NCBI GenBank assembly: GCA_934277615.1
Contig: CAKQUV010000001.1
Location: 206,380 to 270,379, forward strand
Reading direction: 5' to 3'
Length of the DNA stretch: 64,000 nt
Source: an uncultured Clostridia bacterium
GTDB taxonomy: Bacteria; Bacillota; Clostridia; Christensenellales; CAG-917
Below the pieces are notes generated by a model, which was given only the letters and a program-made list of their open reading frames with translations, did no database searches and was not told where the DNA came from. Shown here in pieces: positions 4,839-48,042 of the stretch. The position numbers were made by a program, and so were the translations under genes. The first letter of the stretch is position 1. Every line of letters begins with the position of its first letter.

Positions 4839-4944
4839 GAAACTAACGCAAATTTTGCGACTGTATAAATAAAACCTAATCACACTATCTCGTTTCCGAA
4901 AGGAAAATATCAAGGGAGAGGGAGAAATTACATTGGGGTGTAAT

Positions 4945-11394: not shown

Positions 11395-11434
11395 TCGCCA
11401 AATTTAGCGTTGCAAAATGCGCAAAATATAGAAA

Positions 11435-11462
11435 AACGGCTTTCAATTGAAAGTCGTTTTTC
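11435..11462 (+). terminator. intrinsic terminator after the giant lipoprotein gene
   Basis: aacggctttc-aatt-gaaagtcgtt hairpin followed by a T run. Confidence 0.65.
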
Positions 11463-11523
11463 TTATTGGTTTTCTTTGATAATTGACGCTTTTTTGCTAT
11501 TGATTGGTCAAATTGAACGTTTT

Positions 11524-11757
11524 TTATTCAATCTGAATTTTCTTCATCTTTGCAAAATAATTGATCTCGCCCACCGTGAAGAGCAATCCTGCAACTACGA
11601 ACATCGTTATGCCGATTGCGTAGCCGATCGTGCCAGGGACGAGGAAGAAAAACGCCAAGCCGACTGATAGAGCAATGAATGCAACGAGAATGAAAAGTAT
11701 CATGACGTTCATATTGCTGATTTCGGCAACCTTTCTTACGAGATTGTTATCTTCCAT
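11524..11757 (-). CDS. small two-helix membrane protein
   Basis: 77-aa ORF. AAGGAGG (rc of 11764-11770) lies 6 nt upstream of the ATG. Two hydrophobic helices (VMILFILVAFIALSVGLAFFFLV; IGITMFVVAGLLFTV). Preferred over the overlapping plus-strand ORF 11410..11667, which has no RBS. Confidence 0.6.
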   Translation of the reverse strand: MEDNNLVRKVAEISNMNVMILFILVAFIALSVGLAFFFLVPGTIGYAIGITMFVVAGLLFTVGEINYFAKMKKIQIE

Positions 11758-11960
11758 ACCATACCTCCTTTGAGATTGTGTATAGCGTGTGCAATCGGCG
11801 CGATTTTATGTAAGACGACGCAGTTTAAGATATATCTGCCTTATACTAAAAACTTTTTGGCATAATGAGATAAAACACTACAAAATGTCGAATTTTTGTG
11901 TTGCGAAGATATGCATACAAGTATATAATTAGTATGGAATATTTATTTGGGGATAAATAT

Positions 11961-13637
11961 ATGCTTGTCAAAGATAAAAAGTATTTCGAAGGTTTTAGAT
12001 GGTTTGCGCTGTTTACATTGCTTTGCACCGTAGCGATGTGGATTGCTCTATGGGCGTCATCTGCAACTCCCGGTGATGTCAGCGGAGCAAACAGTTGGGC
12101 GATGGCAGGCGCGATTGACGGCAAATACAATCTTTCTCATAAATTCGATTCCGCAATAACCACGCAAAACGTCACGATTGAAAGAACTACGTGGAAAGCG
12201 TACTACATCGGCGACCAAGAGCAAATGAAAGCTATTTTTTCGCCCAAAGGGACGCGCGATACGGACGTGGAATGGTCGTCGGGAAACGAAAACGTCGCAA
12301 CCGTTGACCAAAACGGACTCGTTACGCTTGTCGGAAAAGGTGAAGTGCGAATTTTTGCAAAACTCAAAAGCAATCTCGATATCGTCAATTATGAATACTT
12401 TTTCTGTTGGGGGGAAAATCCTCACAACGTTGAAAATCCACACGTAAGACTTAAAAATAACGTCAAATCCGTAAATGTCGGCTCTTCCACCACGATAATA
12501 CTCAATGACAACAAGACACATAGCGTCGCTGCATCGTACCGGACATCCGATGAAAGCGTGGCAATCGTCGATGCCGGCATGTTGCACGCAAGAAAAGCGG
12601 GCAATGTTACTATAACCGCAACGTATAGTGACGGCTTTGAATGTTCTTGTGTCGTTACTGTGGTTGACAATCCCGAATACGTATGCCCTACGCAAATAAT
12701 TTTGCAAGACAAACACATAGATCAAGGTGACGTAATCGATGTATATGATTTTGTAAAAAGCGTACTGCCAAACGACGATTTTCAAAAATGTATAGTTACA
12801 ATCACACAATCAAAATCCGTTGCGGGACTTAGGAACACCAACTTGCACGTGTGGGGTTACGGTGAGTTTACTCTCACTTTTACGTCCTGCTTCAACGAGA
12901 ACGTAAAAGCAAGCATCACGCTATATTCCAATAGAAAAATGCCGGAAGATTTCCGCGTTTCCATACCTTCGGTTGCAAGCCCCAACAACACGTATTATCT
13001 CAAAGCGGCACATTATCCCTACCCTTGCACCGACGAGGTGAAGTGGGAACTTGTCAGCGGAAAACACGCAACGCTTGACGAGGACGGCGTTTTTAAACCG
13101 AGATTTTTCGGCACATACGTAATTCGTTGTACGAGCACGATAGACCCGAGTTTGAGCGTGGAAAAAACCGTTGAGGTCAAGCTTTTCGACGACATCGGAG
13201 GTTTCGTGCGCAAACTTATGGGACATATGGGACTGTCGGGCGTTCTCGGCTTCGGCCTGTTCTTCACTTGCTTATTCCTTTGCAAACACAAGTGGAAATG
13301 CGCCGTATATCCCTTCGTGATATCCTTCGTTCACGGCGGGCTTTCGGAGGCAATTCAATACTTCACACCGGGGCGTTTTTGCACCTTTGCGGACGTCCTC
13401 GTGGATTTTATGGGCGGTTGTATAGGTATTGTTCTCGGAATGATTTTGGCGAGCCTTATATTGCTTATATGGAAACTTGCCAACAAGCAGAGTTTCGATA
13501 GAGCGGTATATGCCATAAAGAGCCTAAACGGCGGCAATTGCTTCAAAAAAATGTATAAGTTCGATGCCGAATACGCCGAGGAAAACAGGGAAAACCAACC
13601 TCACGCAGAAGAAACGCAAGCAGCCGACGTAGCATAA
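11961..13637 (+). CDS. Big_2-domain protein fused to a C-terminal VanZ-like membrane domain
   Basis: Start chosen at ATG 11961 (MLVKDKKYFEGFRWFALFTLL..., signal anchor). Big_2-like repeats (GNENVATVDQNGLVTLVGKGEVRIF; TSDESVAIVDAGMLHARKAGNVTITATY). VanZ-like C-terminus (GHMGLSGVLGFGLFF...LSEAIQYFTPGRFCTFADVLVDFMGGCIGIVLG). Confidence 0.75.
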   Translation: MLVKDKKYFEGFRWFALFTLLCTVAMWIALWASSATPGDVSGANSWAMAGAIDGKYNLSHKFDSAITTQNVTIERTTWKAYYIGDQEQMKAIFSPKGTRDTDVEWSSGNENVATVDQNGLVTLVGKGEVRIFAKLKSNLDIVNYEYFFCWGENPHNVENPHVRLKNNVKSVNVGSSTTIILNDNKTHSVAASYRTSDESVAIVDAGMLHARKAGNVTITATYSDGFECSCVVTVVDNPEYVCPTQIILQDKHIDQGDVIDVYDFVKSVLPNDDFQKCIVTITQSKSVAGLRNTNLHVWGYGEFTLTFTSCFNENVKASITLYSNRKMPEDFRVSIPSVASPNNTYYLKAAHYPYPCTDEVKWELVSGKHATLDEDGVFKPRFFGTYVIRCTSTIDPSLSVEKTVEVKLFDDIGGFVRKLMGHMGLSGVLGFGLFFTCLFLCKHKWKCAVYPFVISFVHGGLSEAIQYFTPGRFCTFADVLVDFMGGCIGIVLGMILASLILLIWKLANKQSFDRAVYAIKSLNGGNCFKKMYKFDAEYAEENRENQPHAEETQAADVA

Positions 13638-13763
13638 ACACAAGATTGCGCCGAAAAACAAGACCGCATTTGGGCTCTATATATCGGCACAACTTTGGAC
13701 ACTTTTGCATAATCGGCGAAATCGTGCAGGTATAAAATCTCAAGACGTGGCAACAATCGTTGT

Positions 13764-14339
13764 ATGAAAAACACATCTCGAGAAATTGTAAACTCAATAG
13801 AAAAAATCGTAAAAAGCAGCGACGGCATAGATGACGTCGCTCCTTTTGTAAGTTTGCTTTTCAACGACATTGTTGACAGAGGCGAGCGCGAAATCGTGAT
13901 TGTGTGCTTTGGCACAAACGCAATATCCGGTGACGCGCTCGGTCCTATGGTAGGCACCCTACTAACGCAAAAATACAACGTTCCGGCCTTTGTATACGGC
14001 ACGGACGAGAGCACCGTCAACGGAAAAAATATGGCGCAATGGCTGTCTTTTATCAAAACGGTACACAAAGACGCAATCTTCGTTGCGGTGGACGCAAGTC
14101 TCGGCAGAGCGGATAAAATCGGTGATATCGTAATACGCCCCGACGGGGTATGTCCCTCGGGCGTTACAGGCAAATCCGAGCGATTCGGCGACGTGGGAAT
14201 ATTGGGTATAGTGGCGCAAAACCACAAGGACGCTCTTATGCAACTTATGTGCGTATCGCCACTTGAAGTGTCAAAAATGGCAGATAAAATATCAATTATG
14301 TTAAAAGATGTGATTTGCGCGCCGAGAATTATTGGTTGA
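13764..14339 (+). CDS. yyaC: YyaC-family putative sporulation protease
   Basis: 191 aa. The motif REIVIVCFGTNAISGDALGPMVGTLL matches the YyaC/GPR-like fold signature (xxCIGTDRSTGDSLGPLVG). yyaC is origin-linked in Bacillus. Confidence 0.7.
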   Translation: MKNTSREIVNSIEKIVKSSDGIDDVAPFVSLLFNDIVDRGEREIVIVCFGTNAISGDALGPMVGTLLTQKYNVPAFVYGTDESTVNGKNMAQWLSFIKTVHKDAIFVAVDASLGRADKIGDIVIRPDGVCPSGVTGKSERFGDVGILGIVAQNHKDALMQLMCVSPLEVSKMADKISIMLKDVICAPRIIG

Positions 14340-14398
14340 AATATGTGTTTTTAAGTTTGATTTTTGTATAAAAAGATGTTGAAAAAGGAAATGGATGG

Positions 14399-14420
14399 AA
14401 AGTCGCTAATGCGACTTTTT
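14399..14420 (+). terminator. intrinsic terminator after yyaC
   Basis: aaagtcgc-taat-gcgacttt hairpin plus T5. Confidence 0.6.
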
Positions 14421-14442
14421 GTCGTTTGATAGACAAAAAGTA

Positions 14443-14471
14443 TTGCATAATGCGCGAGAGTCGATTATAAT
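14443..14471 (+). promoter_or_regulatory. sigma-A-type promoter for the cvpA-like gene
   Basis: TTGCAT (14443-14448), 17-nt spacer, TATAAT (14466-14471), about 50 nt upstream of ATG 14521. Confidence 0.5.
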
Positions 14472-14520
14472 AGTTATATCTACATATATGCGTGCATATT
14501 GCGCGCGATAAGGAGAAAAG

Positions 14521-15306
14521 ATGTTTTTGCAAGTGTTATCCGCAGATATACCCTACGCCGATATAGCGTTTTTCGTAATACTCGCTCTCGGCTTGTTGCT
14601 GGGTATTCTGCGCGGTTTTTCCAAATCGTTCAAAGGCTTTTTCCTCACGATAGGGATTATGCTTGCCGCACTTCTCATCCTCTCGCCTACCTTTGCAAAA
14701 GTGCGTGAAATCAGCGTATTTGACAAAATGGAAACTTCCATAACGGAAGGTATACAAGGAAAATCCGAACTGCTCAGCGAGCCCATTTACGTCGAAACGG
14801 ATGAAGAAGGCAAACGCACTTTCTACGTCGACGTAACGAAAGACGGCGTTACTACGCGCACAGATCTCGAAACAGTCATCAAAAACAGCGATATGTCCGG
14901 CAAGCTCAAAGGTCAAACGACGCTTTGGCTTGCGCAAAAATTTATTTACGAGGACGGACAATCCATCGGCGAGGTTGCCGGCGCTTTCATATCCGACCTT
15001 ATCGTGGCAATCGTGGCGTACGTCGTGTATTGCCTTGCGCTGGGACTTATATGCTGGCTGTTGCGCAAGATTTTTGCAAAGATGCACGACTCGGACAACA
15101 AACTTCTCAAAGCGCTCGACCGCACTTGCGGCGCAATCGTATCAACGGCATTTGCGGCTGTGTTTATTTTGCTTGTGCTTGCAATCCTTTACGCTTTGCG
15201 CGATAAAATAGGCGTTGTTGACACCGCCCTTCGCGATTCCAAAGTGTGCGGATATTTCTACCTTAACAACCCTGTGGCAAAACTATTCACCGAAATCTTC
15301 GGTTGA
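14521..15306 (+). CDS. CvpA-family membrane protein
   Basis: 261 aa, AAGGAG RBS. The N-terminal pattern (DIAFFVILALGLLLGILRGFSKSF...) and four hydrophobic helices are typical of colicin V production protein-like CvpA. Confidence 0.65.
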   Translation: MFLQVLSADIPYADIAFFVILALGLLLGILRGFSKSFKGFFLTIGIMLAALLILSPTFAKVREISVFDKMETSITEGIQGKSELLSEPIYVETDEEGKRTFYVDVTKDGVTTRTDLETVIKNSDMSGKLKGQTTLWLAQKFIYEDGQSIGEVAGAFISDLIVAIVAYVVYCLALGLICWLLRKIFAKMHDSDNKLLKALDRTCGAIVSTAFAAVFILLVLAILYALRDKIGVVDTALRDSKVCGYFYLNNPVAKLFTEIFG

Positions 15307-15357
15307 CACGACGTCGCGCTTTTTTAGGCGCGCGTTTTTTTATACGGAGTAACTATT

Positions 15358-18300
15358 ATGAGAGTATTACGCGGAACTTTGACCTTTATCCTCGGTATGG
15401 TAATCGGCATCATACTTTTCGTTCTTGCAATCGGCGGCGCGGTCTACATAATGGGCACGTCGATGACCGTCGGAGAATTGCAACAAAAATTTACCGATGA
15501 AGAGATTATCGCATCCGACAGCGAGGCGTACGGAAAAACTATTCTCGACGCTGCGCTCAAAGCGTACGACGATTTTAAAAACCTTGATAACCTCACGCTT
15601 GAATCCTTGTATAAATCTTACGGCATCAAAATGCTCAACGGCATTAGCGGCGTGGATTTCACAAACAAGGACTTCTACACCATGCCTTTGACCGAATTGT
15701 TTAAGGACCTGTCCAAAATTACCAATTCGTTTACACTCGATGATGTCGGCACGCTTGCCAAATTGGAATTCCCCGACATTCCCGTCATCGACGACAATCT
15801 TAACGTCGGCATGAAAGACGCCATAAACAATATCCTCGGCTCTATCGACGGAAATCTTACCGTGCGCGATATTCAAGGCAAATTCGGCATAGACATCGGT
15901 CTTGGCGCAAACAAAATGCTGCAAGCGGTGCAAGACGTAAAACTTTCTGCTTTCGGCGATACAATCAACGCGGTGCGCCTTTTCAACCTCATCGACGTGG
16001 ATGTGGACGAATTTATCAAATCGGGCAACAACACTGTTTACGTCAAGCTCGGCGACGACGGCGTTTTTGAAGAAGTAAGCAAGGAAGACCTTGCGCTCAA
16101 GGCAGGATATATCCCGCCCTTCGGCGTGGAAACGTATATTTCCGGGAGCATCGACGCGGACGAAAACGGCAAAGCGGACCACACAATAGAAAGGGAACTC
16201 CGCTACGTTCTGAAAACCAAGACGGACAAGGAAACGGGCGAGGAAACTTCGTCATACGTTGTCGACAACTCCTGTTATGAGGATAATTTCGACGCGGAAA
16301 CCAACGAAACGACGTATTATCGCCACGTTTTGTATTCCGTAAACGACGGCTCTCATACGGTGGAAAATCCCCTGTATTACGTGATTTCCTACGCAAACCG
16401 CATAGATTCTTATACAACCGATACGTTTTCGCTGGTGCAAAAGGGCTTCGCTTCCCTCGACAAACTCACAGTGTACAAAGACGGACAATACGTGCCTGCG
16501 TCGGCGCTTGTCGAGGGCGGCATGCAAACAATCGTCATCAACGACTTTGCGTTTGCCTATGAGAAAGACGGCGCAACGCAATCAAAGCCCGCTTCTCGCT
16601 ACTATATCACCGAATCTCCGATAACCAAAGACAGCCGCCTTCAAGCACTCGAGGACGGCGTAACCATAAGCGGCGATTATCTCATTGCGCACGAGGGCAC
16701 GTCCTCCAAAGTGTTGCAACTTGTGGCGTACATGACCGTTGCGGAACTTGAAAGCGCAGACGATATCCTCGATTCGCTCACAATCGGCGACGTTGTGGAT
16801 ACCGAGGCGGCAGATACCGCAAAAATCCTCAAAACGTTGGCTGATACAAAAATCGGCGAACTCGGCTCGAAAGTCGATACCCTCTCGCTTGCGGAAATGA
16901 CGGATATCACGTTTACGGCATACACGAGAGTGAACGGAGTAGGCGGAAGCTACGTGCTTGTAGAGGACAAAGACTCCGAGGGTAATTTTATCTATGTCAA
17001 CTATGATGACGAAAGCCCCAACAAGAACTACGTATCTCGCTATCGTTATGACAGCGAAACAAAGACATACAAGGCGGACGAAAAAGGCAAGTATATGCGC
17101 GCATATCATTTCACCTTGTACAACCCTGCTTTGCACAACGTTGACGGCAGTGCTCCGACGTACACTTACGATATAAACGAAGGCGCAGTCGAAAATCCCT
17201 CCTCAAAAGTGCTTCAACGCCTCGCATACACCAAAATCAACGACTTCTCCGGCTCGTTCAGTGATTTGTCGCTCGGCGAAGTTATGGATATCGACTCGGA
17301 TTTGTACGTCGTAGACGACGGCGCCGCCGCCGAAAATGCGACGAGATACTATTATGACTCCGCTCTCAACGTCTATATGCGCATAACCGAGAGCAACAAG
17401 GACGAGCATACCGCCGACGCCAAGTACGTCATCTCGAATGAAGGCGCTTCTCAATCCGTGCTCAAACGCCTCGCATTCGTCAAAATCGACGATATGTCCG
17501 ACGCTATGGAACAGATAACCAAAGATATGCTGCTCTCCGAACTCGTTGATATTTACAACGAATACGCAGTGCAAGAAAACACGTCTTTTGACCTCCTTGC
17601 ATACGACGAAACGAAAGATAGATTCTTCATCGAAGATACTGACGGCGACGGATACGTGTTTGCTTACAACGACAAAGGCAAGTACGTCAAAGGCGACTGG
17701 CGCATGGACGCATACGGCGCAGACGAGCTTGCGACAATCGCAGTCAAATATACCGCAACGTCCTATTCATACCAACCGATTACGTCAATCGCGGAGGCAA
17801 AAGCCGCTCTCACCTCTTACAACATCTACTACAAAGGTCAACGAGACGGCGTAACCGTATATGAAAACAATATCGCGCTTTGCTCGTATATCGTCGCGCA
17901 ATCGTTTTCAAGCGGAACGCTCCCCTCGAACACTCTTTATACGAGAGTAAGCAATACCGGTTACGAGAACCCTCAAACGAGCGTCGCTCGCTACGGCTCT
18001 GCGGGTGCGGAAAATATTTACGTGCTTATCAACGGCACTTATATCGCATACGATATGAGCAATCTCGCTCACCTCTCGCAAGACGTTTACTATAAGAAAG
18101 TGACCGCTGCGACAGGCGAAACGATGTATATAAGACAATCTCAACCCGGCATTTTGTCGGGCGCAACAGTCGAAACCGCACAAGACACGTCAAGTGCGAA
18201 ATTTGCAAAATACAAAGCCGAAGCGGTGTATTTCAAGACCACAAGCACAACCAACGCTTACGTCTTTGCAGGCGGTAAATACGTGCCTTATGACGAGAAC

Positions 18301-18807
18301 GTGCACGGCGCTGCGGATAAAAACGAATTGTTTGTCAAAAAGAGCGGATACATCGCGACGCTTACGGAAACGTACCTTGTCAACAACAACGAGGAAAAAG
18401 TGCCTATCCCCTCATCTGGACTTGCCAACACGCCCGTTACGCTCATAAGAGAAAAGAGTCAAGCCGTGCTGCGTATGCTTGCCAGAAAGGAAACGACAAT
18501 CGACACTATCAACACTGCGGTGCAAGAGGCGCAAATAAAAGATATTATGGACGTTGACGAGGACAGTTTGTTCTCGCGTTTCGAGGGCGCTACAATCGAG
18601 CAACTGAGCGACAAGGTGGAAACTTCACTCAAAGAAATGAGCGTCGGCGAATTGCTCGATTACATCAATATCGAGAAAGTCAACCCCGAAGTCAAAGCGG
18701 CTCTCTGCAACGTAACGTTGACCGACTTCTTCAAGAGTTTGGTGCCAAAAGCAGGTATCGGCATCGTTGTGGATATGGAAATTGCCTGCGGTTACAAGAC
18801 AAAATAA
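15358..18807 (+). CDS. large N-terminally anchored extracytoplasmic protein with degenerate internal repeats (function unknown)
   Basis: 1149 aa. N-terminal helix LTFILGMVIGIILFVLAIGGAVYIM. Acidic and Tyr/Thr-rich. About 7-8 copies of a ~30-aa motif (e.g. SKVLQRLAYTKINDFSGSFSDLSLGEVMDI; QSVLKRLAFVKIDDMSDAMEQITKDMLLSELVDI). Confidence 0.75.
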   Translation: MRVLRGTLTFILGMVIGIILFVLAIGGAVYIMGTSMTVGELQQKFTDEEIIASDSEAYGKTILDAALKAYDDFKNLDNLTLESLYKSYGIKMLNGISGVDFTNKDFYTMPLTELFKDLSKITNSFTLDDVGTLAKLEFPDIPVIDDNLNVGMKDAINNILGSIDGNLTVRDIQGKFGIDIGLGANKMLQAVQDVKLSAFGDTINAVRLFNLIDVDVDEFIKSGNNTVYVKLGDDGVFEEVSKEDLALKAGYIPPFGVETYISGSIDADENGKADHTIERELRYVLKTKTDKETGEETSSYVVDNSCYEDNFDAETNETTYYRHVLYSVNDGSHTVENPLYYVISYANRIDSYTTDTFSLVQKGFASLDKLTVYKDGQYVPASALVEGGMQTIVINDFAFAYEKDGATQSKPASRYYITESPITKDSRLQALEDGVTISGDYLIAHEGTSSKVLQLVAYMTVAELESADDILDSLTIGDVVDTEAADTAKILKTLADTKIGELGSKVDTLSLAEMTDITFTAYTRVNGVGGSYVLVEDKDSEGNFIYVNYDDESPNKNYVSRYRYDSETKTYKADEKGKYMRAYHFTLYNPALHNVDGSAPTYTYDINEGAVENPSSKVLQRLAYTKINDFSGSFSDLSLGEVMDIDSDLYVVDDGAAAENATRYYYDSALNVYMRITESNKDEHTADAKYVISNEGASQSVLKRLAFVKIDDMSDAMEQITKDMLLSELVDIYNEYAVQENTSFDLLAYDETKDRFFIEDTDGDGYVFAYNDKGKYVKGDWRMDAYGADELATIAVKYTATSYSYQPITSIAEAKAALTSYNIYYKGQRDGVTVYENNIALCSYIVAQSFSSGTLPSNTLYTRVSNTGYENPQTSVARYGSAGAENIYVLINGTYIAYDMSNLAHLSQDVYYKKVTAATGETMYIRQSQPGILSGATVETAQDTSSAKFAKYKAEAVYFKTTSTTNAYVFAGGKYVPYDENVHGAADKNELFVKKSGYIATLTETYLVNNNEEKVPIPSSGLANTPVTLIREKSQAVLRMLARKETTIDTINTAVQEAQIKDIMDVDEDSLFSRFEGATIEQLSDKVETSLKEMSVGELLDYINIEKVNPEVKAALCNVTLTDFFKSLVPKAGIGIVVDMEIACGYKTK

Positions 18808-21417: not shown

Positions 21418-21503
21418 AAAGGAGCGCAATGCGTTCCTTTTGGCGCTTCGACGTGGTACGCCTCAACATAATAAAAGGAACGCGATGCGTTCCTTTTGGC
21501 GCC
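21418..21503 (-). repeat. direct duplication of the tRNA 3' end plus terminator hairpin
   Basis: Minus strand: GCGCCA+aaaggaacgcatcgcgttccttt (21474-21503) is repeated as GCGCCA+aaaggaacgcattgcgctccttt (21418-21446). Confidence 0.6.
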
Positions 21504-21572
21504 TGTTGAGGGACTCGGACCCCCGACACTTCGGTTAACAGCCGAATGCTCTACCGACTGAGCTAAACAGGC
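21497..21572 (-). tRNA. tRNA-Asn (anticodon GTT), CCA encoded
   Basis: Hand-folded cloverleaf: acceptor gcctgtt/aacaggc, D arm gctc-agtcggta-gagc, anticodon arm ttcgg-ctGTTaa-ccgaa, variable loop gtgtc, T arm ggggg-tccgagt-ccctc, discriminator G, CCA. The T-loop has C at position 55, which is non-canonical. Confidence 0.85.
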
Positions 21573-23965: not shown

Positions 23966-25066
23966 ATGAAACTTATTTGTCAAGGAAACGAATTGAGCGA
24001 CGCTCTCGCAAAAGTTGTAAAGGCACTTCCCGTAAAACGTAATAATCCAATTCTCGACGGTGTAAAACTCACCGCTTTGGGTGATACGCTCACGATTTTT
24101 GCAACCGATCTCGAACTTGCAATTGAAAAGAAAATCAACGCGCAAGTGCTCATTGAAGGCGAAATCGTTGTACCCGGCAAACTTTTTGCGGATTACGCAA
24201 AGAAAATCGAGGAAGAACAAATCGAACTCGACGGCACCGATCCGACAAAACTCATCATCAAGTATCTTGATAGCGAATTGCAAATCAAGTGTATGAGTGC
24301 GGATGAATACCCTGTATTCAAAGAAGTCGATACGCAAAATTCTTTTATCATCCTCAAAAAAGAATTCAAAGACATTATTTCCAAGGTTATATTCAACGTT
24401 GCGGTTGACGAGGCAAGACCTTCCCTCCGCGGCGTGTGCCTCAACATCAAAGACGAAGAGGTTGAAGCTGTCGCATCCGACGGATATCGACTTGCTCTTG
24501 CAAGAGCGCAAATCAAAAACAACGGCATCGTTGACAAAATCGTCGTTCCTTCCAAGAGTATGAACGAGCTTGCTCGTCTTATCGACGAGGGTGAAGAAAC
24601 AATCACCGTCTATGTTGAGAAAAACTATATCATGGTTGACCTCTTCCACACTAAAATCGTTACAAGACTTATCGGTGAGGAATATATCAACTATGAAAAA
24701 ATTATCCCCAGCGTTTTCACCACTGAAGTTACAATCGACAAGAAGCTCTTTGAAAACGCAATCGATCGTGTATCCCTTATCAACCGCACCGAGAAGAAAT
24801 CTTACGTGAAGATGGAAATCAAAGAGGATACAATCTCCCTCAACGCACACAGCGATGACGGCGAAATCAACGAAAAAGTTACCATCGGTCTTAAAGGAAA
24901 AGATCTTACAATCGGTTTCAATTCCAAATACATCATTGACAGCATGCATGCAATCGACGAGCCGTTTGTAACTCTCAACTTCACAACCTCTACGGCACCG
25001 GGAATTATTAAGGGCGAGAGCGACCGTTGGCTGTATCTCATCCTTCCTCTCCGTGTCATCGGTTAA
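23966..25066 (+). CDS. dnaN: DNA polymerase III beta sliding clamp
   Basis: 366 aa of typical three-domain clamp length. MKLICQGNELSDALAKVVKALP..., RPSLRGVCLNI, C-terminal ...LILPLRVIG. Confidence 0.95.
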   Translation: MKLICQGNELSDALAKVVKALPVKRNNPILDGVKLTALGDTLTIFATDLELAIEKKINAQVLIEGEIVVPGKLFADYAKKIEEEQIELDGTDPTKLIIKYLDSELQIKCMSADEYPVFKEVDTQNSFIILKKEFKDIISKVIFNVAVDEARPSLRGVCLNIKDEEVEAVASDGYRLALARAQIKNNGIVDKIVVPSKSMNELARLIDEGEETITVYVEKNYIMVDLFHTKIVTRLIGEEYINYEKIIPSVFTTEVTIDKKLFENAIDRVSLINRTEKKSYVKMEIKEDTISLNAHSDDGEINEKVTIGLKGKDLTIGFNSKYIIDSMHAIDEPFVTLNFTTSTAPGIIKGESDRWLYLILPLRVIG

Positions 25067-25074
25067 AAAACGCG

Positions 25075-25225
25075 CTAAATAGCGACTAACTTTGTCAGTG
25101 CCCCGAGCCCGCCAACTCATTTACGATTAGTAAATTAGGGTTGTCGTTCTCGGGGCACTTTCGCGTTACTCATCTGTTTGGTGAGCTTTTATATATTTTT
25201 TATTATAATTCATCTATTTATCGCG
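25075..25225 (+). repeat. family-A palindromic intergenic element, copy A1
   Basis: ctaaatagcgactaactttgtcag + stem gtgccccgag (25098-25107) + conserved core caactcatttacgattagtaaattagggttg (25113-25143) + stem ctcggggcac (25149-25158) + tttcgcg...ttcatctatttatcgcg. Starts 9 nt after the dnaN stop. Confidence 0.75.
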
Positions 25226-25263
25226 TTTTTATAAGCTTTATTTTTATATGGAATATTCCTTAT

Positions 25264-25464
25264 GTCATTTCGAGCGTTAGCGTGGCAATCAAGGCGTAAG
25301 CCGCACACATAAAGCAAACGATATAGCGAAATTGTGGTAAGAGCTTTATCCTTGTTTGAACTGATAGCGTGTATCGGTTGCGCGGTAGAAGTTGCGAAAA
25401 CAAATACAATAAAGGGACTGCTATTATTATTGCAGTCCCTTTGTAATTATGCCGTTTGAGCAAC
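25264..25464 (+). repeat. family-B element, copy B1 (conserved core plus variable long hairpin)
   Basis: Core gtcatttcgagcgttagcgtggcaatcaaggcgtaagccgcacaca...cgatatagcgaaattgtgg...ctgatagcgtgtatcggttgcgcggtag (25264-25388). Then the nested hairpin gttgc...aaagggactgc-tattattat-tgcagtcccttt...gcaac. Confidence 0.75.
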
Positions 25465-25495
25465 GTGACATGTGTTTAGCATTCGGCGCAATTAC

Positions 25496-26869
25496 TTATC
25501 TATTAAGTATCATATTCTTAATATCCGCAACGGTGATTTTGATGCGCGGATTGGTCTTGATTTCGTCGCTGATTTTATCTCTTGCGTGGATAACCGTCGT
25601 GTGATCTCTGCCGCCAAACATCTCGCCTATCTGCACAAGCGGCATCGGTAAAAGCTCGGTGATAAGGTATATAGCGATCATACGAGGCTCGACGATGTTT
25701 TTGGTTTTCTTTTTTGAAATGATATCCGTTGTGGAAATCTTGAAGTATTTACACACGGCGTCGATAATTCCGCTTGCGTCGGTTGTTTCGCCTTGTTTTT
25801 CTTTGAGGAATCCCGAAAACGCCTCGCTTGCAATCTCTCTTGTTTGAATGGGATTGTTTGTGAGCGAGCTATAGAAGATAATGCGGTTGAGCAAACCTTC
25901 CATTTCTCTGATATTTGACGGAGCAAGCTCTGCAATATACTCTGCCACTTCATCAGAGAGCATAAATTTGGACTGTACTGCTTTGGTTTTGAGGATAGCC
26001 ACCCTTGTTTCGAGGTCCGGCACTTGAATATCCACAATAAGACCGCATCCAAAACGTGTGCGAAGCCTGTCCGACAGCGTTGTTAGGTCTTTTGGCGAAC
26101 GATCGGACGTGAGAATAATTTGTTTATTGTCTTGATACAGGTCGTTGAAGATGTGGAAAAATGCCTCCTGCGTTGCCTCTTTGCCGATAAGGAATTGCAC
26201 GTCATCGACCATAAGCACGTCGCAAGAGCGGTATTTTTCTCTGAAACGGTTATTCTCGTCGTTAGACTTGTTGCGAATGACGCTGATAAGCTCTGTAACA
26301 AGCGTTTCCGCACTCACGTAAAGCACGTTTGCGGACTTCCTGTTTTTGAAAAGATAATTGCCTATTGCATGCAAAAGGTGAGTCTTACCAAGACCTACAC
26401 CCGAGTAGATAAAGAGCGGATTGTAACTTCCGCCGGGGTTTTGAGCAATAGTCTTGCAAGCTGCCAAAGCGTACTCGTTGGATTTGCCCACGACAAAGTT
26501 TTCAAAAGTGTATTTTTCAAGGAACGGGCATTTTTTCTTGCCTTTTTCTTCAGGGGTGAAGTTGGTAACAAAACCCTCGTCCTCTATAAACACGGTTTGT
26601 TTGTTGAGATATTCGTCTTTTTTGTCGGGAGTAATAATAATTACGTCGGTGATTGCGGAATTGAGCGAGTTTACCACTTCTTTTATGGTGTCGCGGTATC
26701 TCGTATCGATTGTGCGTTTTGCGTTTGCGGAAATAGTCGACAATACGATTGCGTTGTCAACAAAGCAAACAGGCTCCAATTTTTCTATCCACACTTCATA
26801 ACTTATCGCTTGTATGGATATGGACAATTCATCCTTTGCGTTTTCCCAAAATTCTTCAATGTTAATCAT
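25496..26869 (-). CDS. dnaA: chromosomal replication initiator DnaA
   Basis: 457 aa. AAA+ Walker A GVGLGKTHLLHAIGN, Walker B LMVDDVQFL, domain IV GGRDHTTVIHARDKI. It lies on the opposite strand to both dnaN and recF. Confidence 0.97.
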   Translation of the reverse strand: MINIEEFWENAKDELSISIQAISYEVWIEKLEPVCFVDNAIVLSTISANAKRTIDTRYRDTIKEVVNSLNSAITDVIIITPDKKDEYLNKQTVFIEDEGFVTNFTPEEKGKKKCPFLEKYTFENFVVGKSNEYALAACKTIAQNPGGSYNPLFIYSGVGLGKTHLLHAIGNYLFKNRKSANVLYVSAETLVTELISVIRNKSNDENNRFREKYRSCDVLMVDDVQFLIGKEATQEAFFHIFNDLYQDNKQIILTSDRSPKDLTTLSDRLRTRFGCGLIVDIQVPDLETRVAILKTKAVQSKFMLSDEVAEYIAELAPSNIREMEGLLNRIIFYSSLTNNPIQTREIASEAFSGFLKEKQGETTDASGIIDAVCKYFKISTTDIISKKKTKNIVEPRMIAIYLITELLPMPLVQIGEMFGGRDHTTVIHARDKISDEIKTNPRIKITVADIKNMILNR

Positions 26870-26876
26870 ATTTTTG

Positions 26877-26904
26877 ATTATATCAAAACGACGGATTTTT
26901 TCAA
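26877..26904 (-). promoter_or_regulatory. candidate dnaA promoter placed for a leaderless mRNA
   Basis: Minus strand: TTGAAA (26904-26899), 16-nt spacer, TATAAT (26882-26877), then caaaaat and ATG (26869). No SD. Confidence 0.45.
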
Positions 26905-26939
26905 GCGAAAATCAAAAAAGAAAACTTAAACACAAGATG

Positions 26940-26968
26940 TTGAAAAAAAACGCTCTCTACGCTATACT
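26940..26968 (+). promoter_or_regulatory. candidate recF promoter placed for a leaderless mRNA
   Basis: TTGAAA (26940-26945), 17-nt spacer, TATACT (26963-26968), then tgtagtgt and ATG 26977. No SD. Confidence 0.45.
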
Positions 26969-26976
26969 TGTAGTGT

Positions 26977-28077
26977 ATGAAAATCCTTTCGCTCGAACTT
27001 CAGAACTTCAGAAACTACCTCGAGGCCGCTGTAAACTTTGCAGACGGTCTTAACGTTTTGTACGGGCAGAATGCGAGCGGAAAGACCAATATGCTGGAAT
27101 CTATATATCTTTGCTCCATTTTCCACTCCCCTCGCACTACAAAGGACAAGGAAATGATTTTGCTTGGCAAAGACAAAGCAAGGGTGAAAATCGCGCTCGA
27201 AAGGAAATTTAGAAAACACACTATAGTCCTTCAAATAGACGCTCAAGGCAAGAAAAAAGTTGCCGTGGACGGTATCCCTGTCAATCGCGCAGGTGAACTT
27301 TTGGGAGTGCTCGGCGTGGTGTTTTTCTCCCCCGATGAAATGAAACTCGTCAAAGAGGCGCCTCAAGAAAGACGCAGATTTTTGGACGTGGGCATATCCC
27401 AACAACAAAAGGCGTATTTTATCGCGCTTCAACGCTACAACAAAACGCTCAAGCAAAAGAACAATCTTCTCAAAGAATACAAGTATCAAAACATAGACGA
27501 TATGCTTGACGTTTGGGATGCGTCGCTTGCAAAAGAAGGCGCGATTATCGTGCAAAAACGAAAGGAATATATAGCCACGTTGAGCGACGCCGCGCGCAAA
27601 TTTCACTTTGCGTTAAGCGGCGAAAAGGAAACTCTTGCCCTCTCGTACGAAAGCGGCGTAAAAACGGATTGTGAGGACAGTCAGCTTGAAAGCAATTTAT
27701 ATTCCTCAATTGTCGCATCAAGGCAAAAAGACAAAGAACTCGGTTTTTGCACTGTCGGACCTCATCGCGACGATATCAAAATCGAAATCAACGGCAAAGA
27801 CAGCCGCAAGTTTGCATCGCAAGGTCAGCAGCGCACCATTGCGCTTGCAATGAAACTCGGTGAAGTGATTATCTACAAAAACGAAATCGGAGAGCCGCCC
27901 GTTTTGCTCCTCGACGACGTGCTTTCCGAACTTGATGAAAACAGACAAACCACCCTACTCAAAATGACGGAAGGTTTCCAAACAATTCTCACCTGCACGG
28001 AATATACTCTTCCGAATAAAGCCAACAAGATAAACATAAAAGACGGCTCGGTTGTAGGTGGAAAAATTAATAGTTAA
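26977..28077 (+). CDS. recF: DNA replication/repair protein RecF
   Basis: 366 aa. MKILSLELQNFRNY, Walker A GQNASGKTNMLESI, signature SQGQQRT, Walker B VLLLDDVLSELD. Confidence 0.95.
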   Translation: MKILSLELQNFRNYLEAAVNFADGLNVLYGQNASGKTNMLESIYLCSIFHSPRTTKDKEMILLGKDKARVKIALERKFRKHTIVLQIDAQGKKKVAVDGIPVNRAGELLGVLGVVFFSPDEMKLVKEAPQERRRFLDVGISQQQKAYFIALQRYNKTLKQKNNLLKEYKYQNIDDMLDVWDASLAKEGAIIVQKRKEYIATLSDAARKFHFALSGEKETLALSYESGVKTDCEDSQLESNLYSSIVASRQKDKELGFCTVGPHRDDIKIEINGKDSRKFASQGQQRTIALAMKLGEVIIYKNEIGEPPVLLLDDVLSELDENRQTTLLKMTEGFQTILTCTEYTLPNKANKINIKDGSVVGGKINS

Positions 28078-31938: not shown

Positions 31939-32367
31939 ATGGAAAAGATAACGTCGTTTACAATCGACCACAACGTGCTTAAAAAGGGTTTTTACCTCAG
32001 CCGTGTGGATAAAAACGTGTTTACATACGATTTGCGCTTTAAAGAGCCGAATAAAGGCGACTATCTTCATATGGCTGCAATGCACACTATAGAGCATTTA
32101 TTTGCCACTGTTGTGCGCAACAGCGCGTATAAGGATAAAGTTGTGTATTTCGGCCCTATGGGCTGCAGAACGGGCTTTTATTTGCTTTTGTTCGATACGG
32201 ACAAAGATGAGGCACTCGCGCTCACCAAAGAGTGCGTCGCAAAATGCCTCGAACTCGATACGATCCCCGGTAGCAAGAAAATCGAGTGCGGAAACTACCG
32301 CTCTCACAACCTTGCCGGCGCAAAGAAAGAATTGTCCGAATATCTTGACGTCCTCAACACCCTGTGA
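31939..32367 (+). CDS. luxS: S-ribosylhomocysteine lyase LuxS
   Basis: 142 aa. Metal site HTIEHL and GCRTGFY. Confidence 0.93.
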   Translation: MEKITSFTIDHNVLKKGFYLSRVDKNVFTYDLRFKEPNKGDYLHMAAMHTIEHLFATVVRNSAYKDKVVYFGPMGCRTGFYLLLFDTDKDEALALTKECVAKCLELDTIPGSKKIECGNYRSHNLAGAKKELSEYLDVLNTL

Positions 32368-32483
32368 AACAGAGCTGAGTTGATATCTATATGTAAAAAA
32401 GTTTGTGTGCCGATATATTGTAATAAATCAAATACGAGTTTAGTGATAAATACTCATAACATAACATTTAAAAACGCACGGAT

Positions 32484-32515
32484 AACAGGTTGACGAAGCG
32501 TCAGCCTGTTTTTTC
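32484..32515 (+). terminator. intrinsic terminator after luxS
   Basis: aacaggttgacg-aagc-gtcagcctgtt followed by tttt. Confidence 0.7.
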
Positions 32516-32924
32516 ACTTTTACAATGAGTTATATTTCAACAAAACGAAAAAATAATAGTTTATAAGTAAACTATTATAACATATATAAACATATTGAAA
32601 TAGTGTGATAAACAGGGAAAACTCAGGTACATAAAACAATACGTGATTTTGATAATTGCCGAATATGGGTAAATAGTGTAAATAGTGTAAATAGCATGAA
32701 TATGTAAAAAAATATTGTGTTAAGTATAAGAAGGCTTAATTTGAATTGTAAATAGTAATTCATAGGTATAATTGTAATAATGTCATATTTATAAAGTGCC
32801 GATATTGCGGTCTGATAAGAATATATAAATAGACGGAGTGATTTAAACAAAGAGAGAAAAGCATATACTCACCGCCATTCTGTTTGTGATTAATTATGAT
32901 GATTTTTTGACATTTATCTCATAT

Positions 32925-32940
32925 TGTTTCACGTGTAACG
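32925..32940. promoter_or_regulatory. parS-like site tgtttcacgtgtaacg
   Basis: 14/16 match to the Firmicute parS consensus TGTTNCACGTGAAACA. Confidence 0.6.
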
Positions 32941-33051
32941 TATAGAAAAGCAAATATCAAGTTTCTACGAAATAAGCAAAATTATTAAATAAAAGCGTGC
33001 CGAGGTTTTAACTAAACTCGATACACTTGCTTTTATATTTGCGATTTGTAT

Positions 33052-33719
33052 TTATATATTATACCGAGAAATCGTTCGATGATATTCGTATATCGTATAC
33101 GTTGCTTTATAGTGATGTTGCCGATTATCTATCCGAGATTTGGCTCGATAATCGAGTAATCTCCCATTATCGTTCCATTCGCCGTACATAATACCCTTCC
33201 TTGTATTCTCGACAAATTTTGCCAGTCGTGATTGATAAAGTTCGAGTCGATGTTTGTTGAATTGAATTGTGTCTATTCTCACTCTTTGATATAGCGGCGG
33301 AAAACTCAAAAAGTTTTGCCACACAACGTTATCTGATTGCAGCAGGATTAATATATCTTGATTTATAACAAAACCACTCTCTGACATATCCGGTAACGCA
33401 GCTCTTCCGCTATCCGTCATAAGGCCGAGCTTCTCAAGCCTTCTGCAACGCTCATTATTAAGTTCTGTCCGGTTGCTGTTTTTCTACGCTTTGCAAAACG
33501 CTGCGCGGTGCTAGTATCCGATATTTTCTTTTGGGTGCTGTCAATCCAACCAAAGCATAGGGCTTCTTCAACCGCATCAATATACCAAAACGTAGTGCTA
33601 TCTGTAGGGCGACCTCTTTTAACTATTGCCCGGCATTCGTTTTCTTTCGAGTGATTATCCGTAAGCCACCCTCGGAACTCATATCTATTTTTGACGTTAA
33701 GCAAGTTTATTGTTTCCAT
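33052..33719 (-). pseudogene. YdeI/OmpD-associated family gene split by a 1-nt frameshift in an A5 run
   Basis: ORFs 33417..33719 and 33052..33420 encode the N and C halves of one YdeI-like protein. The second frame already reads KNSNRTELNNERCRRLEKLGLMTDSG upstream of its ATG. An A6 in place of the A5 (rc of 33479-33483) would restore a single ORF. Confidence 0.7.
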
Positions 33720-33785
33720 ATGCCGATTATACCACTATATATCGGAGTGGTCAATATTCCGCAAAAATCTATAAAAACGCAAAAT

Positions 33786-33801
33786 TGTTTCACGTGTAAC
33801 G
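33786..33801. promoter_or_regulatory. parS-like site tgtttcacgtgtaacg
   Basis: Same 16-mer as 32925-32940. Embedded in a 24-nt perfect direct repeat attgtttcacgtgtaacgtataga. Confidence 0.6.
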
Positions 33802-33870
33802 TATAGAGAAAATAGGCTAAACTCATACTAAATAGTAGAAGAGTAGCATGTTTTTGTGCATTAATCAAAA

Positions 33871-33888
33871 TGTGGATAATATGGATAA
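33871..33888. promoter_or_regulatory. two tandem DnaA boxes
   Basis: TGTGGATAA (perfect complement of TTATCCACA) is immediately followed by TATGGATAA (8/9). A further AGTGGATAA lies at 34021-34029. Confidence 0.55.
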
Positions 33889-34197
33889 TGATCAAATTGC
33901 GGGTAGAATTATATAATTTGATTATTACTACTTAGCATCTAATTGCAATTATTAGTCGGTGTTATTTTGACGATATTCAATCGTACTATAACAACCGCAA
34001 TATCAATAATTTACGTGTATAGTGGATAAACAATTATTGCCTCAAATTGAGAATAAAAACAAAGGCAAACATCACTAAAAACTGTATAAATCGAGATAAA
34101 AGCGCAACGAGAGCATGCGGTGTTTGATTGAAAGTAATAATAGTGATATGAGTGATAATATGGTGTGTTTATCGGAGAAATCGATGTAAAACGTCTA

Positions 34198-34213
34198 TGT
34201 TTCACGTGTAACA
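34198..34213. promoter_or_regulatory. parS-like site tgtttcacgtgtaaca
   Basis: 15/16 match to TGTTNCACGTGAAACA. Confidence 0.7.
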
Positions 34214-34230
34214 ATTTGATTTTCGAACCC

Positions 34231-34246
34231 CGTTTCACGTGGAACG
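34231..34246. promoter_or_regulatory. parS-like site cgtttcacgtggaacg
   Basis: 14/16 match read on the complementary strand (CGTTCCACGTGAAACG). Lies 17 nt from the previous site. Confidence 0.65.
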
Positions 34247-34743
34247 AAAACATCTGAAAACCCACTATTTAGTGGGGTTTTAGGCTGTTTTTGCTACCCA
34301 AAAAATAATTTTTGGTCTTTCACCATGTAAATTTTGACAGAAAAATTTTCGACCTTTCACCCAAATTTTTCGGCATAAAATGTTTCTCGATTTTTATAGA
34401 AAATTTTTACTGTTTCACACTGTTTCTATTGTTTGTATCTATGTTGTGTTTTTCTATATGATTCTTCTAGTGAAATCTTCTGTAATCTATAGTGATAAGT
34501 GCTGATTTTACCTGTTATTAATCTCTATTTTTCTATGCAATTTGATATTGAAGTATTGTTTACTGCTTTGTGTTTTGCTTGATGATGTACGACATAAACG
34601 GATAAATGCACTCATTTTTTCGTATCTCGTAATTCGCTTTTACAATATGATTATTAGGGTGTTTTTGATTTTGTTTATATTCTTTTGTATGCATAAAACA
34701 AGCAAAAACGCCGCTAAATAATGCGGCGTTTCACGGAAAACAA

Positions 34744-34761
34744 ATTTTCCACTTATCAACA
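34744..34761. promoter_or_regulatory. 18-mer attttccacttatcaaca (TTATCAACA is a DnaA box with 1 mismatch); second copy of the dnaN-upstream 18-mer
   Basis: 17/18 identical to 23890-23907. Confidence 0.45.
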
Positions 34762-34931
34762 CGTCAATGTCGGCTCAAACGGTTGAATTTCTATCGTTTT
34801 AGAGAAAAACATTATAAAACAGTTTACAAGTAAACATATGTACTTTCTTGTTTTTATACTTTTTGTCTTTTTTACGGTATTTTTTATTGCTCACAAAGAT
34901 CGATATTTGCCATTGAAAATTACTTTTTCTT

Positions 34932-42139: not shown

Positions 42140-42245
42140 ATAGCGAATAACTGCGGCAGAGCCGTTCGCTGGTCAACTCATTTACGATTAGTAAATTAGG
42201 GTTGCCCCTCGGACGGCTCTTTCTTGTTCTTCATCTATTTATCGC
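42136..42245 (+). repeat. family-A element, copy A2
   Basis: ctaaatagcgaataactg + stem agagccgt (42158-42165) + core caactcatttacgattagtaaattagggttg (42174-42204) + stem acggctct (42213-42220) + ttcttgttcttcatctatttatcgc. Its first TAA (42137-42139) is the stop codon of the glucosidase gene. Confidence 0.8.
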
Positions 42246-42279
42246 AGTTTGGCAAGCTTTTGTTTAAGCGGAATATTCC

Positions 42280-42357
42280 ACAACTTGCGCCTTCGGCTTG
42301 ATTGCCACGTCACGTCGTTTCTCGCAATGACTATATGGTGGGACACCCACACCCGAA
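42280..42357 (-). repeat. partial inverted family-B copy (B2')
   Basis: The reverse complement reads ttcgggtgtgggtgtcccaccatatagtcattgcgagaaacgacgtgacgtggcaatcaagccgaaggcgcaag, which parallels the 5' part of B3. Arranged head to head with B2. Confidence 0.6.
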
Positions 42358-42373
42358 TTATATTTTTCCTTAT

Positions 42374-42587
42374 GTCATTCCGAGGAGCAACGAATGTTGC
42401 GATGTGGGAATCTAGGCGTTAGCCGCACACACCAAGCAAGCGATATAGCGGAACTGTGGTATGAGTTTTATCCTTGCAAGACTGATAGCGTGTATCGGTT
42501 GCGCGGTAGTAAAGCAAAAATCTAACGTGGCACTTGGCAATACACACAAGTGTGTGTTGCCATTGCCACAGTGACGATTTTTGCTTG
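42374..42587 (+). repeat. family-B element, copy B2 (core plus long hairpin)
   Basis: Core gtcattccgaggagcaacgaatgttgcgatgtgggaatctaggcgttagccgcacacaccaagcaagcgatatagcggaactgtgg...ctgatagcgtgtatcggttgcgcggtag (42374-42509). Then agcaaaaatc...gtggca..tacacac-aag-tgtgtgt..tgccac...gatttttgct. Confidence 0.8.
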
Positions 42588-47857: not shown

Positions 47858-47860
47858 GCG

Positions 47861-47985: not shown

Positions 47986-48042
47986 GCTCTTCATCCGTTT
48001 GGACGGCTCTTTTTATAAAGTGCAGTCGTAAAACCTTAATGC

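Follow-up and report, generated by a model that had tools for sequence, protein, structure and literature searches.

Among the short palindromic repeats described in bacteria, the CGTC/TGTC-tagged REP-like stem-loops include dRS3 of Neisseria and RPE-4 and RPE-6 of Rickettsia; the CGTC-tagged REPs have an 8-9 bp stem with A-T in the first two pairs, a 4-5 nt loop and a CCA tail, are located mostly downstream of genes, and show heterogeneous stems and no dedicated transposase (Di Nocera, De Gregorio and Rocco 2013, PMC3733652). This is the closest described group to the repeat family reported here, termed A, of which one hairpin copy (A1) lies in the 429-nt spacer between the convergent dnaN and dnaA genes of the window, i.e. 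the whole 64,000-nt stretch of clostridial DNA analysed, and is followed there by an unrelated structured repeat, B1. As in the CGTC/TGTC repeats, the GC-rich stem opens with an A-T pair immediately after a YGTC tag, the family contains heterogeneous stems, most copies lie downstream of coding regions, and a dedicated transposase was not found; core-less derivatives of A (e.g. at locus L029) have the same plan. A thus carries the tag of this superfamily (CGTC, TGTC/CCTC next to the stem): in 68 aligned copies it is TGTC in 34 (50%), CGTC in 15 (22%), i.e. one of the two in 72% of copies, and CGGC in 9 (13%), with an invariant G. In the stem, 66 of these 68 copies have A-T as first pair; as second pair, 38 have G-C and 24 A-T. 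In contrast, the A stem has 11 bp, its loop mostly consists of a 41-nt structured core (5-6 nt only in core-less copies), TTC or TCC follows the stem in place of a CCA tail, additional conserved arms and a locus-specific outer stem enclose it, and the host phylum, Firmicutes (Bacillota), is absent from the phyla reported for the group. Given these differences in stem length, loop, tail, arms and phylum, A is better read as working like the CGTC-tagged REPs than as a proven member of them.

Other families resemble A in part. Like REP/BIME elements and the RAYT-mobilised REPINs, A consists of high-copy extragenic palindromes located behind genes, in mosaic association with other short motifs, and roles in termination and mRNA stability have been proposed for such elements. 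Unlike them, A lacks the GTAG tag of REP/RAYT systems, no RAYT was found, each unit is a single long nested hairpin and not a 20-40-bp palindrome or inverted doublet, and its position is fixed on stop codons. The Correia elements of Neisseria, enterobacterial ERIC and pneumococcal BOX and RUP share with A a size of 100-150 bp, a long imperfect hairpin, presence/absence polymorphism, a modular build (as in BOX) and effects to be expected on transcript 3' ends. A differs from these in having neither constant terminal inverted repeats nor a fixed direct target duplication, its ends being inverted copies of the local flank, and in a strict orientation relative to genes. What sets A apart is that its units hold this fixed place on stop codons, copy codons of the host gene in inverted form, and have arms that evolve in concert at the DNA level. 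No description of the family was found in the literature. At gathering score, the only class of Rfam matches in the whole window was tRNA, with no family corresponding to A or B, and Rfam scans by E-value of A1/B1 and of A3 gave only sub-threshold matches to terminators or to long-hairpin miRNAs; a degenerate core pattern had no match in viral contigs, and distant blastn searches of phage and plasmid collections returned nothing. The A family is a new, lineage-specific group of REP/MITE-like repeats and putative terminators, whose function and spread we infer from sequence.

The genes bordering the junction were confirmed with Pfam as dnaN (23966-25066, plus strand) and dnaA (25496-26869, minus strand), with recF (26977-28077, plus strand) beyond. 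An earlier note on this DNA, made from the sequence alone, had described a convergent dnaN/dnaA junction filled by a palindromic A1 unit and a B1 element, and this description holds for both the genes and the repeats. The second 366-aa ORF is recF and not a duplicate of dnaN, the two 366-aa ORFs being unrelated. The convergent order is kept in contigs encoding an identical DnaN, and inspection by eye of relatives with approximately 80% DnaN identity (L126, L135) also revealed a convergent dnaA 3' end downstream of dnaN. The arrangement is therefore ancestral to the clade and was not made by the repeats. The remaining genes of the window have housekeeping functions (parAB, rsmG, gyrBA, argS, rnpA, yidC, jag, mnmE/G and several tRNA synthetases); searches of its ORFs with Pfam and NCBIfam retrieved only housekeeping genes and surface proteins, and no transposase, integrase or recombinase.

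A1 covers positions 25064-25231 of the plus strand. The earlier note had placed its start 9 nt past the dnaN stop, but the unit begins at the stop codon itself: the outer 5' arm (25064-25074, TAAAAAACGCG), formed by the dnaN stop TAA and AAAACGCG, pairs with CGCGTTTTTA at 25222-25231. Next come the conserved 5' arm (25075-25096, CTAAATAG-CG-ACTAAC-TTTGTC, alignment columns 17-38), with the TGTC tag at its end, and the 5' half of the variable stem (25097-25107, AGTGCCCCGAG), which pairs with 25149-25159. The core module (25108-25148) comprises the linker CCCGC, a 31-nt core hairpin (25113-25143, CAACTC-ATTTAC-GATTA-GTAAAT-TA-GGGTTG) and the linker TCGTT, and is followed by the 3' half of the variable stem and a T-rich tail (25149-25167, CTCGGGGCACT then TTCGCGTT). 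The proper 3' arm (25208-25231, ATTCAT-CTATTTA-TCGCG-TTTTTA), which pairs with 25064-25082, is separated from this tail by a foreign segment of 40 nt (25168-25207) made of a 3' arm remnant of another A allele (ACTCATCTGTTTGGTGAGCTTTTATATA) and a spacer; all these parts read on the plus strand. The foreign piece is missing from L156, a locus encoding an identical DnaN protein in which the proper 3' arm directly adjoins the tail; in L101, L103 and L104 it has its match at the 3' end of the first unit. The A1 of the window is thus a recombinant, with the crossover within CTTTCGCGTTA. Its folding energy is -52.2 kcal/mol (z = -6.2) and that of the other strand -47.6 kcal/mol, both far below shuffled sequences (z ~ -6).

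Five copies of A are present in the window, all with their arms on the plus strand. The 31-nt core is found exactly at 25113-25143 in A1 and at 42174-42204 in A2, and with 2 mismatches at 55561-55591 in A3; shuffled sequence gave 0 matches. A2 (42127-42250) follows an alpha-amylase gene whose stop (42137-42139) is the TAA inside the CTAAATAG block (stop position class +5). A3 (55512-55640), with 53-nt arms, is preceded by a conserved non-coding stretch and no ORF, and is succeeded by A5 (~55655-55745), a diverged tandem copy with the core CAAAAATC-ACGTAC-GCCAA-GTACGT-TG-GGTTTTTG. In A4 (47855-48002), which lies after argS, the core and its linkers (47896-47937) are inverted relative to the arms, and the core, with its diverged inner stem ACGTAC/GTACGT, was matched on the minus strand only. 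The nearly invariant core that the earlier note had ascribed to A1 through A4 thus applies to the first three copies and not to A4. A repeat of another type, C, is inserted in A4 at ~47949-47986, and C-type repeats also interrupt the internal loops of A units at L043 and L092.

Over the window and 153 related loci (1.06 Mb), the family numbers 165-190 copies. A profile search with nhmmer detected 165 non-overlapping copies in 735 kb, and a scan for the exact core yielded at least 100 loci in 13 MAG assemblies. These assemblies are labelled Christensenella sp. UBA... or uncultured Clostridiales, and several labels are plainly wrong. The density of 0.6-1.8 copies per 10 kb in close relatives suggests some 100-300 copies per 1.65-Mb genome, about 1.65 Mb being the size of one complete MAG of the clade. 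The further copies elsewhere on which the earlier note had proposed to test its view of A1, that of a multi-copy hairpin repeat of the REP/BIME/BOX/MITE kind, are thus numerous, and that view is supported. In loci with 62-83% DnaN identity, the profile search detected no A copy; diverged versions were seen by eye in three of these loci.

Units of A measure ~125-135 bp and are built on a common nested plan. The outermost part is the locus-specific outer stem, which begins with the stop codon. Block 1 corresponds to the outer inverted repeats taaatag...ctattta already recognised in the earlier note, TAAATAG/CTATTTA, for which TAAATCG/CGATTTA, CAAACAG/CTGTTTG and TATTGAG/CTCAATA occur as covarying alternatives. 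The arms also contain a conserved mismatch, GCG facing CAT, and a block 2, TAAC/GTTA, with the alternatives TAGC/GCT and TGAC/GTC. An internal loop follows, closed on its 5' side by the YGTC tag and T-rich on its 3' side, then the 11-bp variable stem (59% GC) and two 5-nt linkers flanking a core of two 6-bp stems with a U.G wobble, a 2-nt bulge and a variable 5-nt loop. Variable stems that differ completely yet remain complementary had been reported for the window copies: the stems quoted there are indeed found and do pair, the complementarity is general, and the stems fall into a limited set of related subfamilies, each with several copies at unrelated loci. The rare core-less copies have the same tag and the same variable stem, a 5-6-nt loop and then T residues, as in L029 (CGGC-AGAGCCGTCCG-AATAT-CGGACGGCTCT-TTT), and their existence indicates that the 41-nt core module is separable. 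Core-like hairpins were found only inside A units, and the core was accordingly rejected as an independent element.

A same-strand ORF lies upstream of 107 of 125 full A copies, at a median distance of 5 nt, and between tandem genes the orientation is 42 to 1. The stop codon of a co-oriented ORF is abutted by 104 of 127 copies; a further 13 of the 127 come after another A copy, and 12 of these 13 still begin with a stop triplet. Measured from profile column 1, the stop codon has an offset of -7 to -3 in 77 of 99 copies; in 11 others, A2 among them, the ORF enters the element and ends on the element's own TAA. The stops concerned are TAA in 83 cases, TGA in 14 and TAG in 2, against a background of 300, 205 and 53. 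Another feature considered as defining, and rejected, was a 5' arm closed by stops in every frame: it is seen in only 41% of copies (11% of shuffles), and equally on the other strand.

The possibility of intrinsic termination raised in the earlier note agrees with the T-rich 3' side of the units and with their location behind genes. A combines a GC-rich stem, a T tract on the sense strand and a co-oriented upstream gene with a loop that is atypically large for a terminator (41 nt, structured), and since a loop of more than 8 nt escapes a simple terminator scan, the main hairpin of A1 was missed by such a scan. The first 8 nt after the variable stem contain on average 4.6 T in the sense direction against 1.0 in the antisense direction. 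The strongest reason to assume a function in the sense transcript is that this asymmetry persists from one subfamily to another. The inner hairpin and its T tract would terminate transcription of the upstream gene, which would make A1 a terminator for dnaN. The outer stem is T-rich on both flanks, and the whole hairpin, bordered by A/T runs, may work bidirectionally where genes converge, as dnaN and dnaA do.

Covariation was examined in 68 copies whose choice did not depend on the exact core: those next to seeded copies, those reached through DnaN, and those of the window. Of their stem cells 88.6% are paired; column shuffles give 66.9%, and slid partners ~40%. Changes on both sides are seen in 41 of the 48 stem pairs, and 715 cells are doubly changed, compared with 241 in shuffles. 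Both sides change in 10 of the 11 pairs of the variable stem (helix 2; 94% of cells paired), and 9 of 12 pairs covary in the core (helix 3; 97% of cells paired). The covariation of stems that the earlier note expected of a larger alignment is therefore observed. Its view of the core as nearly invariant does not extend to the family, in which both core stems vary and covary: the inner stem occurs as ATTTAC/GTAAAT, ACGTAC/GTACGT, GTGTAC/GTACAC and ATGTAC/GTACAT, and the other core stem as CAAC/GTTG, CAAA/TTTG, CAAT/ATTG and others. The sequence kept is TC...TAC-N5-GTA...T-N-GG together with the U.G pair, a wobble conserved in 59 of the 68 copies. Pairs of DNA uptake sequences were rejected as an explanation of the core because its stems covary.

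The earlier note had seen in this pattern the signature of selection on a hairpin in RNA or single-stranded DNA, a conclusion that four sets of observations call into question. Leaving aside the conserved wobble, G.T (73) and A.C (89) are about equally common among sense-strand stem mismatches, and this in every helix; RNA selection would favour G.U, which argues for an upkeep of pairing at the level of DNA. Cores are flipped in A4 and L148 (orientation is fixed in 163 of 165 copies), and L157 and L120, which share both locus and arms, hold the core in opposite directions. L024/L120 is a perfect palindrome of two 5'-type arms: its 3' arm repeats the 5' arm as an exact reverse complement, so that the usual T-rich arm is gone. 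Finally, of 102 copies, 89 have the stop codon inside the outer palindrome, and in 31 the palindrome extends 10 nt or more into the CDS, with far lower scores for mismatched-copy controls; 3' arms follow synonymous differences of the host gene (L068 compared with L098), and L001 features an inverted copy of its 5' flank, CGCACTTAA, for which the empty site of L080 has no partner. Between close orthologues, 14 compensated double changes were counted in 1984 stem pairs, compared with ~1 expected from independent hits, the pairs compared not being independent of each other; over the same non-independent pairs, stems diverge less than unpaired sites. Pairing thus appears to be kept by intrastrand DNA templating at least as much as by selection. 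The persistence of asymmetric loops, of the bulge and the wobble, and of core orientation (163 to 2) indicates that fold-back correction is not unrestrained, and that selection or a strand-specific partner must also act. Moreover, some genes in these genomes have plain terminators holding the stop codon in their loop, so that part of the outer palindromes could have existed beforehand, with insertion of A into them.

Comparison of orthologous sites revealed a turnover of units, including the presence/absence polymorphism typical of MITEs. L093 and L035 carry a unit that is absent in L062, placed after the last sense codon and ahead of the TAA that belongs to an older unit; L081 is filled with the same placement where L020, L099 and L031 are empty; and the end of ychF has no unit in the window, one in L080 and two in L001. 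The units of L093 and L035 have common outer arms and different interiors, and orthologous gene ends often have different A subfamilies. Five states of the dnaN/dnaA junction were encountered in contigs with an identical DnaN protein: A1 with the 40-nt extra segment followed by B1 in the window, a clean A1 with a different repeat replacing B1 in L156, another A subfamily in L157, a 5' arm broken by a C-type repeat in L159, and a 5' arm fused to a plain terminator in L162. Strain-level comparison of the ychF, argS, amylase and mnmG ends returned the same arrangement or nothing. Filled and empty sites, allele swaps, flipped cores and the palindromised copy show a duplicative, recombining element, the direction of the events not being polarised by an outgroup.

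Quasipalindrome correction and fold-back template switching are established mutational mechanisms of replication. As in A, quasipalindrome correction converts one arm to the complement of the other, lets the palindrome grow into its flank and can invert the spacer; to our knowledge, however, it is documented for point mutations and rearrangements, and not for the keeping or spreading of a repeat family. In A, the comparison of sites shows new units placed after the last sense codon and before the old stop codon or an older unit, and interiors that recombination has exchanged between copies. The following sequence of events can be envisaged: as a unit inserts, or afterwards, the nascent strand would fold back and copy its own 5' side, extending the 3' arm with the inverted stop codon and last codons of the host gene, and the same process would correct mismatches in the arms, whereby stems could diverge between copies and stay paired without selection at the RNA level; the inner hairpin with its T tract would stop the transcript of the upstream gene. 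A1 would then be one copy of a lineage-specific, high-copy family of nested-palindrome terminators with arms maintained by fold-back, which, taken as a whole, we consider the probable explanation. One could go further and view A units as self-propagating terminator modules without a transposase, which spread by replication template switching at hairpins, land on a stop codon and obtain their arms by fold-back copying of the host's stop and last codons, the arms of the resulting long hairpin evolving in concert from then on. This extension is doubtful, and template switching alone is insufficient to explain the precision of the stop-codon position. If true, it would provide a route for the birth and spread of terminators, and an example of a repeat family kept by a mutational mechanism, with no enzyme of its own and each copy welded to its gene.

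The high copy number, subfamilies, presence/absence polymorphism and strict orientation of A could also be those of a classical non-autonomous transposon of the MITE or REP type, moved by cut-and-paste through a dedicated transposase that another part of the genome supplies in trans. Such an enzyme could be a RAYT or IS200-IS605 Y1 transposase acting on the core hairpin in single-stranded DNA, the imperfect core with its conserved bulge and wobble being of the kind recognised by HUH enzymes, or an IS5/IS630-type transposase with a TAA/TNA target, in keeping with the T[AG]A triplet with which 85% of units begin and the depletion of TAG. The RAYT or IS200-605-type mobilising enzyme for which the earlier note had suggested a search was not detected: tblastn for Y1 transposases, RAYT and IS200-IS605 over the ~1.06 Mb sampled gave nothing below E = 1, which, at a limited sensitivity, represents weak negative evidence, and the enzyme could be encoded outside the sampled DNA. 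Clustering of ORFs aimed at multi-copy transposases was dominated by the dnaA/dnaN loci. No autonomous element with A ends and a transposase was seen in the 1.06 Mb sampled, the window encodes no transposase or integrase domain, and core-like hairpins never occur outside A units, e.g. flanking an ORF. Nor was there a consistent set of constant terminal inverted repeats or a fixed-length direct target duplication at A copies: each locus has its own ends, made of an inverted copy of the flank (3 to >20 nt) and then 5-11 nt of filler, and we know of no transposase that produces such ends. A transposon origin in this classical sense is therefore regarded as unlikely. Integron-type recombination offers a further enzymatic possibility, in which A units would be attC-like sites of a tyrosine recombinase. 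The motifs GCCTAAC / GTCTAAC ... GTTATGC do resemble R'' (RYYYAAC) and R' (GTTRRRY) boxes, a second paired box lies 5-6 unpaired nt away on each side, and the units are directly 3' of a co-oriented ORF; the AAC/GTT triplets, however, covary to AGC/GCT and GAC/GTC, the palindrome extends 25-40 bp past the putative R boxes, the flanks are core genes in conserved synteny and not cassette arrays, and the window has no integrase, which together make this reading highly improbable.

A units could also be cis-acting structured 3' UTR RNAs, for instance a protein-binding element for stability or processing, with stems selected in RNA and only ordinary duplication between copies. The strong covariation, the U.G pair, bulge and internal loops conserved on the sense strand, the fixed sense orientation behind genes and the lower divergence of stems than of unpaired sites between orthologues are all as such RNAs would have them. 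They would not lead one to expect that G.U is not favoured over A.C in stems, that invertible cores put a C.A mismatch on the sense strand, or that the state of a site differs between strains with identical flanking proteins; in addition, no Rfam family matches, and the outer 3' arm, which would remain untranscribed if termination takes place at the inner T tract, is nevertheless kept complementary. We thus find an explanation by RNA selection distinctly unlikely, and retain that of putative terminator repeats with arms maintained by fold-back. If A units do terminate transcription, a large share of the terminators of this clade of small-genome gut Clostridia would go back to a single spreading element, which would clearly exemplify how repeats give rise to regulatory sequence. 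The parity of G.T and A.C, the flipped cores, the palindromised copy and the inverted host codons also constitute a natural data set on intrastrand templating in bacteria, and they illustrate that in multi-copy DNA the covariation of stems alone is no proof of a functional RNA. On the practical side, many contigs end inside A repeats; the repeats break short-read assemblies and extend or end ORFs, and hence matter for assembly and annotation of MAGs of the clade.

The second component of the junction, B1 (25236-25464, plus strand), directly follows A1, as stated in the earlier note, and has two more copies in the window, B2 (42357-42531) and B3 (48403-48576), both on the plus strand. It is a modular structured repeat unrelated to A1 and lodged beside it, for which Rfam has no family. 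Its part 1 follows a GGAATATTCC palindrome (25250-25259) and holds a small hairpin, and part 2 (~25300-25400) forms a covarying long-range helix in which 7 of 14 pairs show compensatory changes. Matches to B detected with nhmmer number 44 overall, with parts 1 and 2 separable and on both strands. The architecture of the terminal hairpin, itself variable in sequence (25411-25442, minus strand, AAAGGGACTGC/GCAGTCCCTTT) and of the conserved end (25451-25463, GCCGTTTGAGCAA) is maintained. This hairpin, with T runs on both strands, is the sole part of the junction with weak terminator-type matches in Rfam, and is probably the dnaA terminator. In L156, L103 and L120, the slot of B1, to the right of a GAATATTC motif, is occupied by another repeat.

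The genes at 23966-28077 of the window are ordered dnaN> <dnaA recF> instead of the usual dnaA-dnaN-recF, and among the related loci compared this order is kept throughout the clade, to about 77% DnaN identity (L126, L135 and L154-L156). In more distant relatives represented by rabbit-gut MAGs (L121, L123 and L125), dnaN is followed by a different short repeat, made of GTGGGGYNNNRCCCCRCA units, along with a plain terminator, and no A unit, the nested palindromic intergenic repeat, lies just 3' of the gene. Assemblies of carrier genomes are broken up by the A repeat family: in the Logan contigs L157-L163, many short-read contigs stop 70-120 nt past dnaN, within the A unit.

The left edge of B, the separate modular repeat adjoining the A copy between dnaN and dnaA, is a palindrome, GGAATATTCC (or GAATATTC), found in the window at 25250-25259, 42270-42279, 28447 and 56189, and also in L156 and L103. 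The alternative repeat that takes the place of this B copy in other strains has the same left edge. The palindrome may be an insertion site common to both repeats.

Upstream of the A copy A3, window positions 55380-55510 hold a promoter-like TTGACA...CATAAT followed by a non-coding stretch of approximately 100 nt, the last bases of which (...CACCCGAGGTCGTTTGC) lie immediately 5' of A3. The stretch is also located 5' of A copies in L009, L015 and L097, and nothing in Rfam matches it. It may represent a small RNA gene with A3 as its terminator.

Another repeat family, several hundred nt long and with 84-88% identity between copies, occurs at 48222-48383 (-) and 55793-55954 (+), with additional window sites at 45982-46044 and 56028-56092. 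Part of its sequence is the motif GACGGAAC..GAGCCGCAAGGCGGCGAGCC; in other genomes this motif is also present 3' of many A copies. A shorter repeat, GACGCGATTGAC-N-CAATCGCTATTCCGTCACTTCGTTCCTTA (47949-47986 and 55950-56000 (-); also L004, L006, L038, L069, L079 and L092), measures about 40-50 nt and is inserted in the internal loops of A units, in every case adjoining AACTTTG or CTTT.

Predicted surface proteins of very large size (1057, 2153, 579 and 1149 aa) are encoded in a cluster at 1665-18807. Repeat domains of the Big_2, MBG and Listeria-Bacteroides types occur in this cluster, and two of the proteins have no family match. An AT-rich stretch of 2.8 kb (32100-34930, 37% GC), flanked by an HlyIII-like gene and a 342-aa ORF without an assigned family, with parAB/rsmG and gyrB nearby, contains only short ORFs, none with family matches. 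It could be the region of the replication origin, or else DNA that has decayed. Directly adjoining the tRNA gene at 21500-21572 is a pair of 29-nt hairpin units, AAAGGAGCGCAATGCGTTCCTTTTGGCGC, nearly identical to each other and spaced 56 nt apart (21418-21502).
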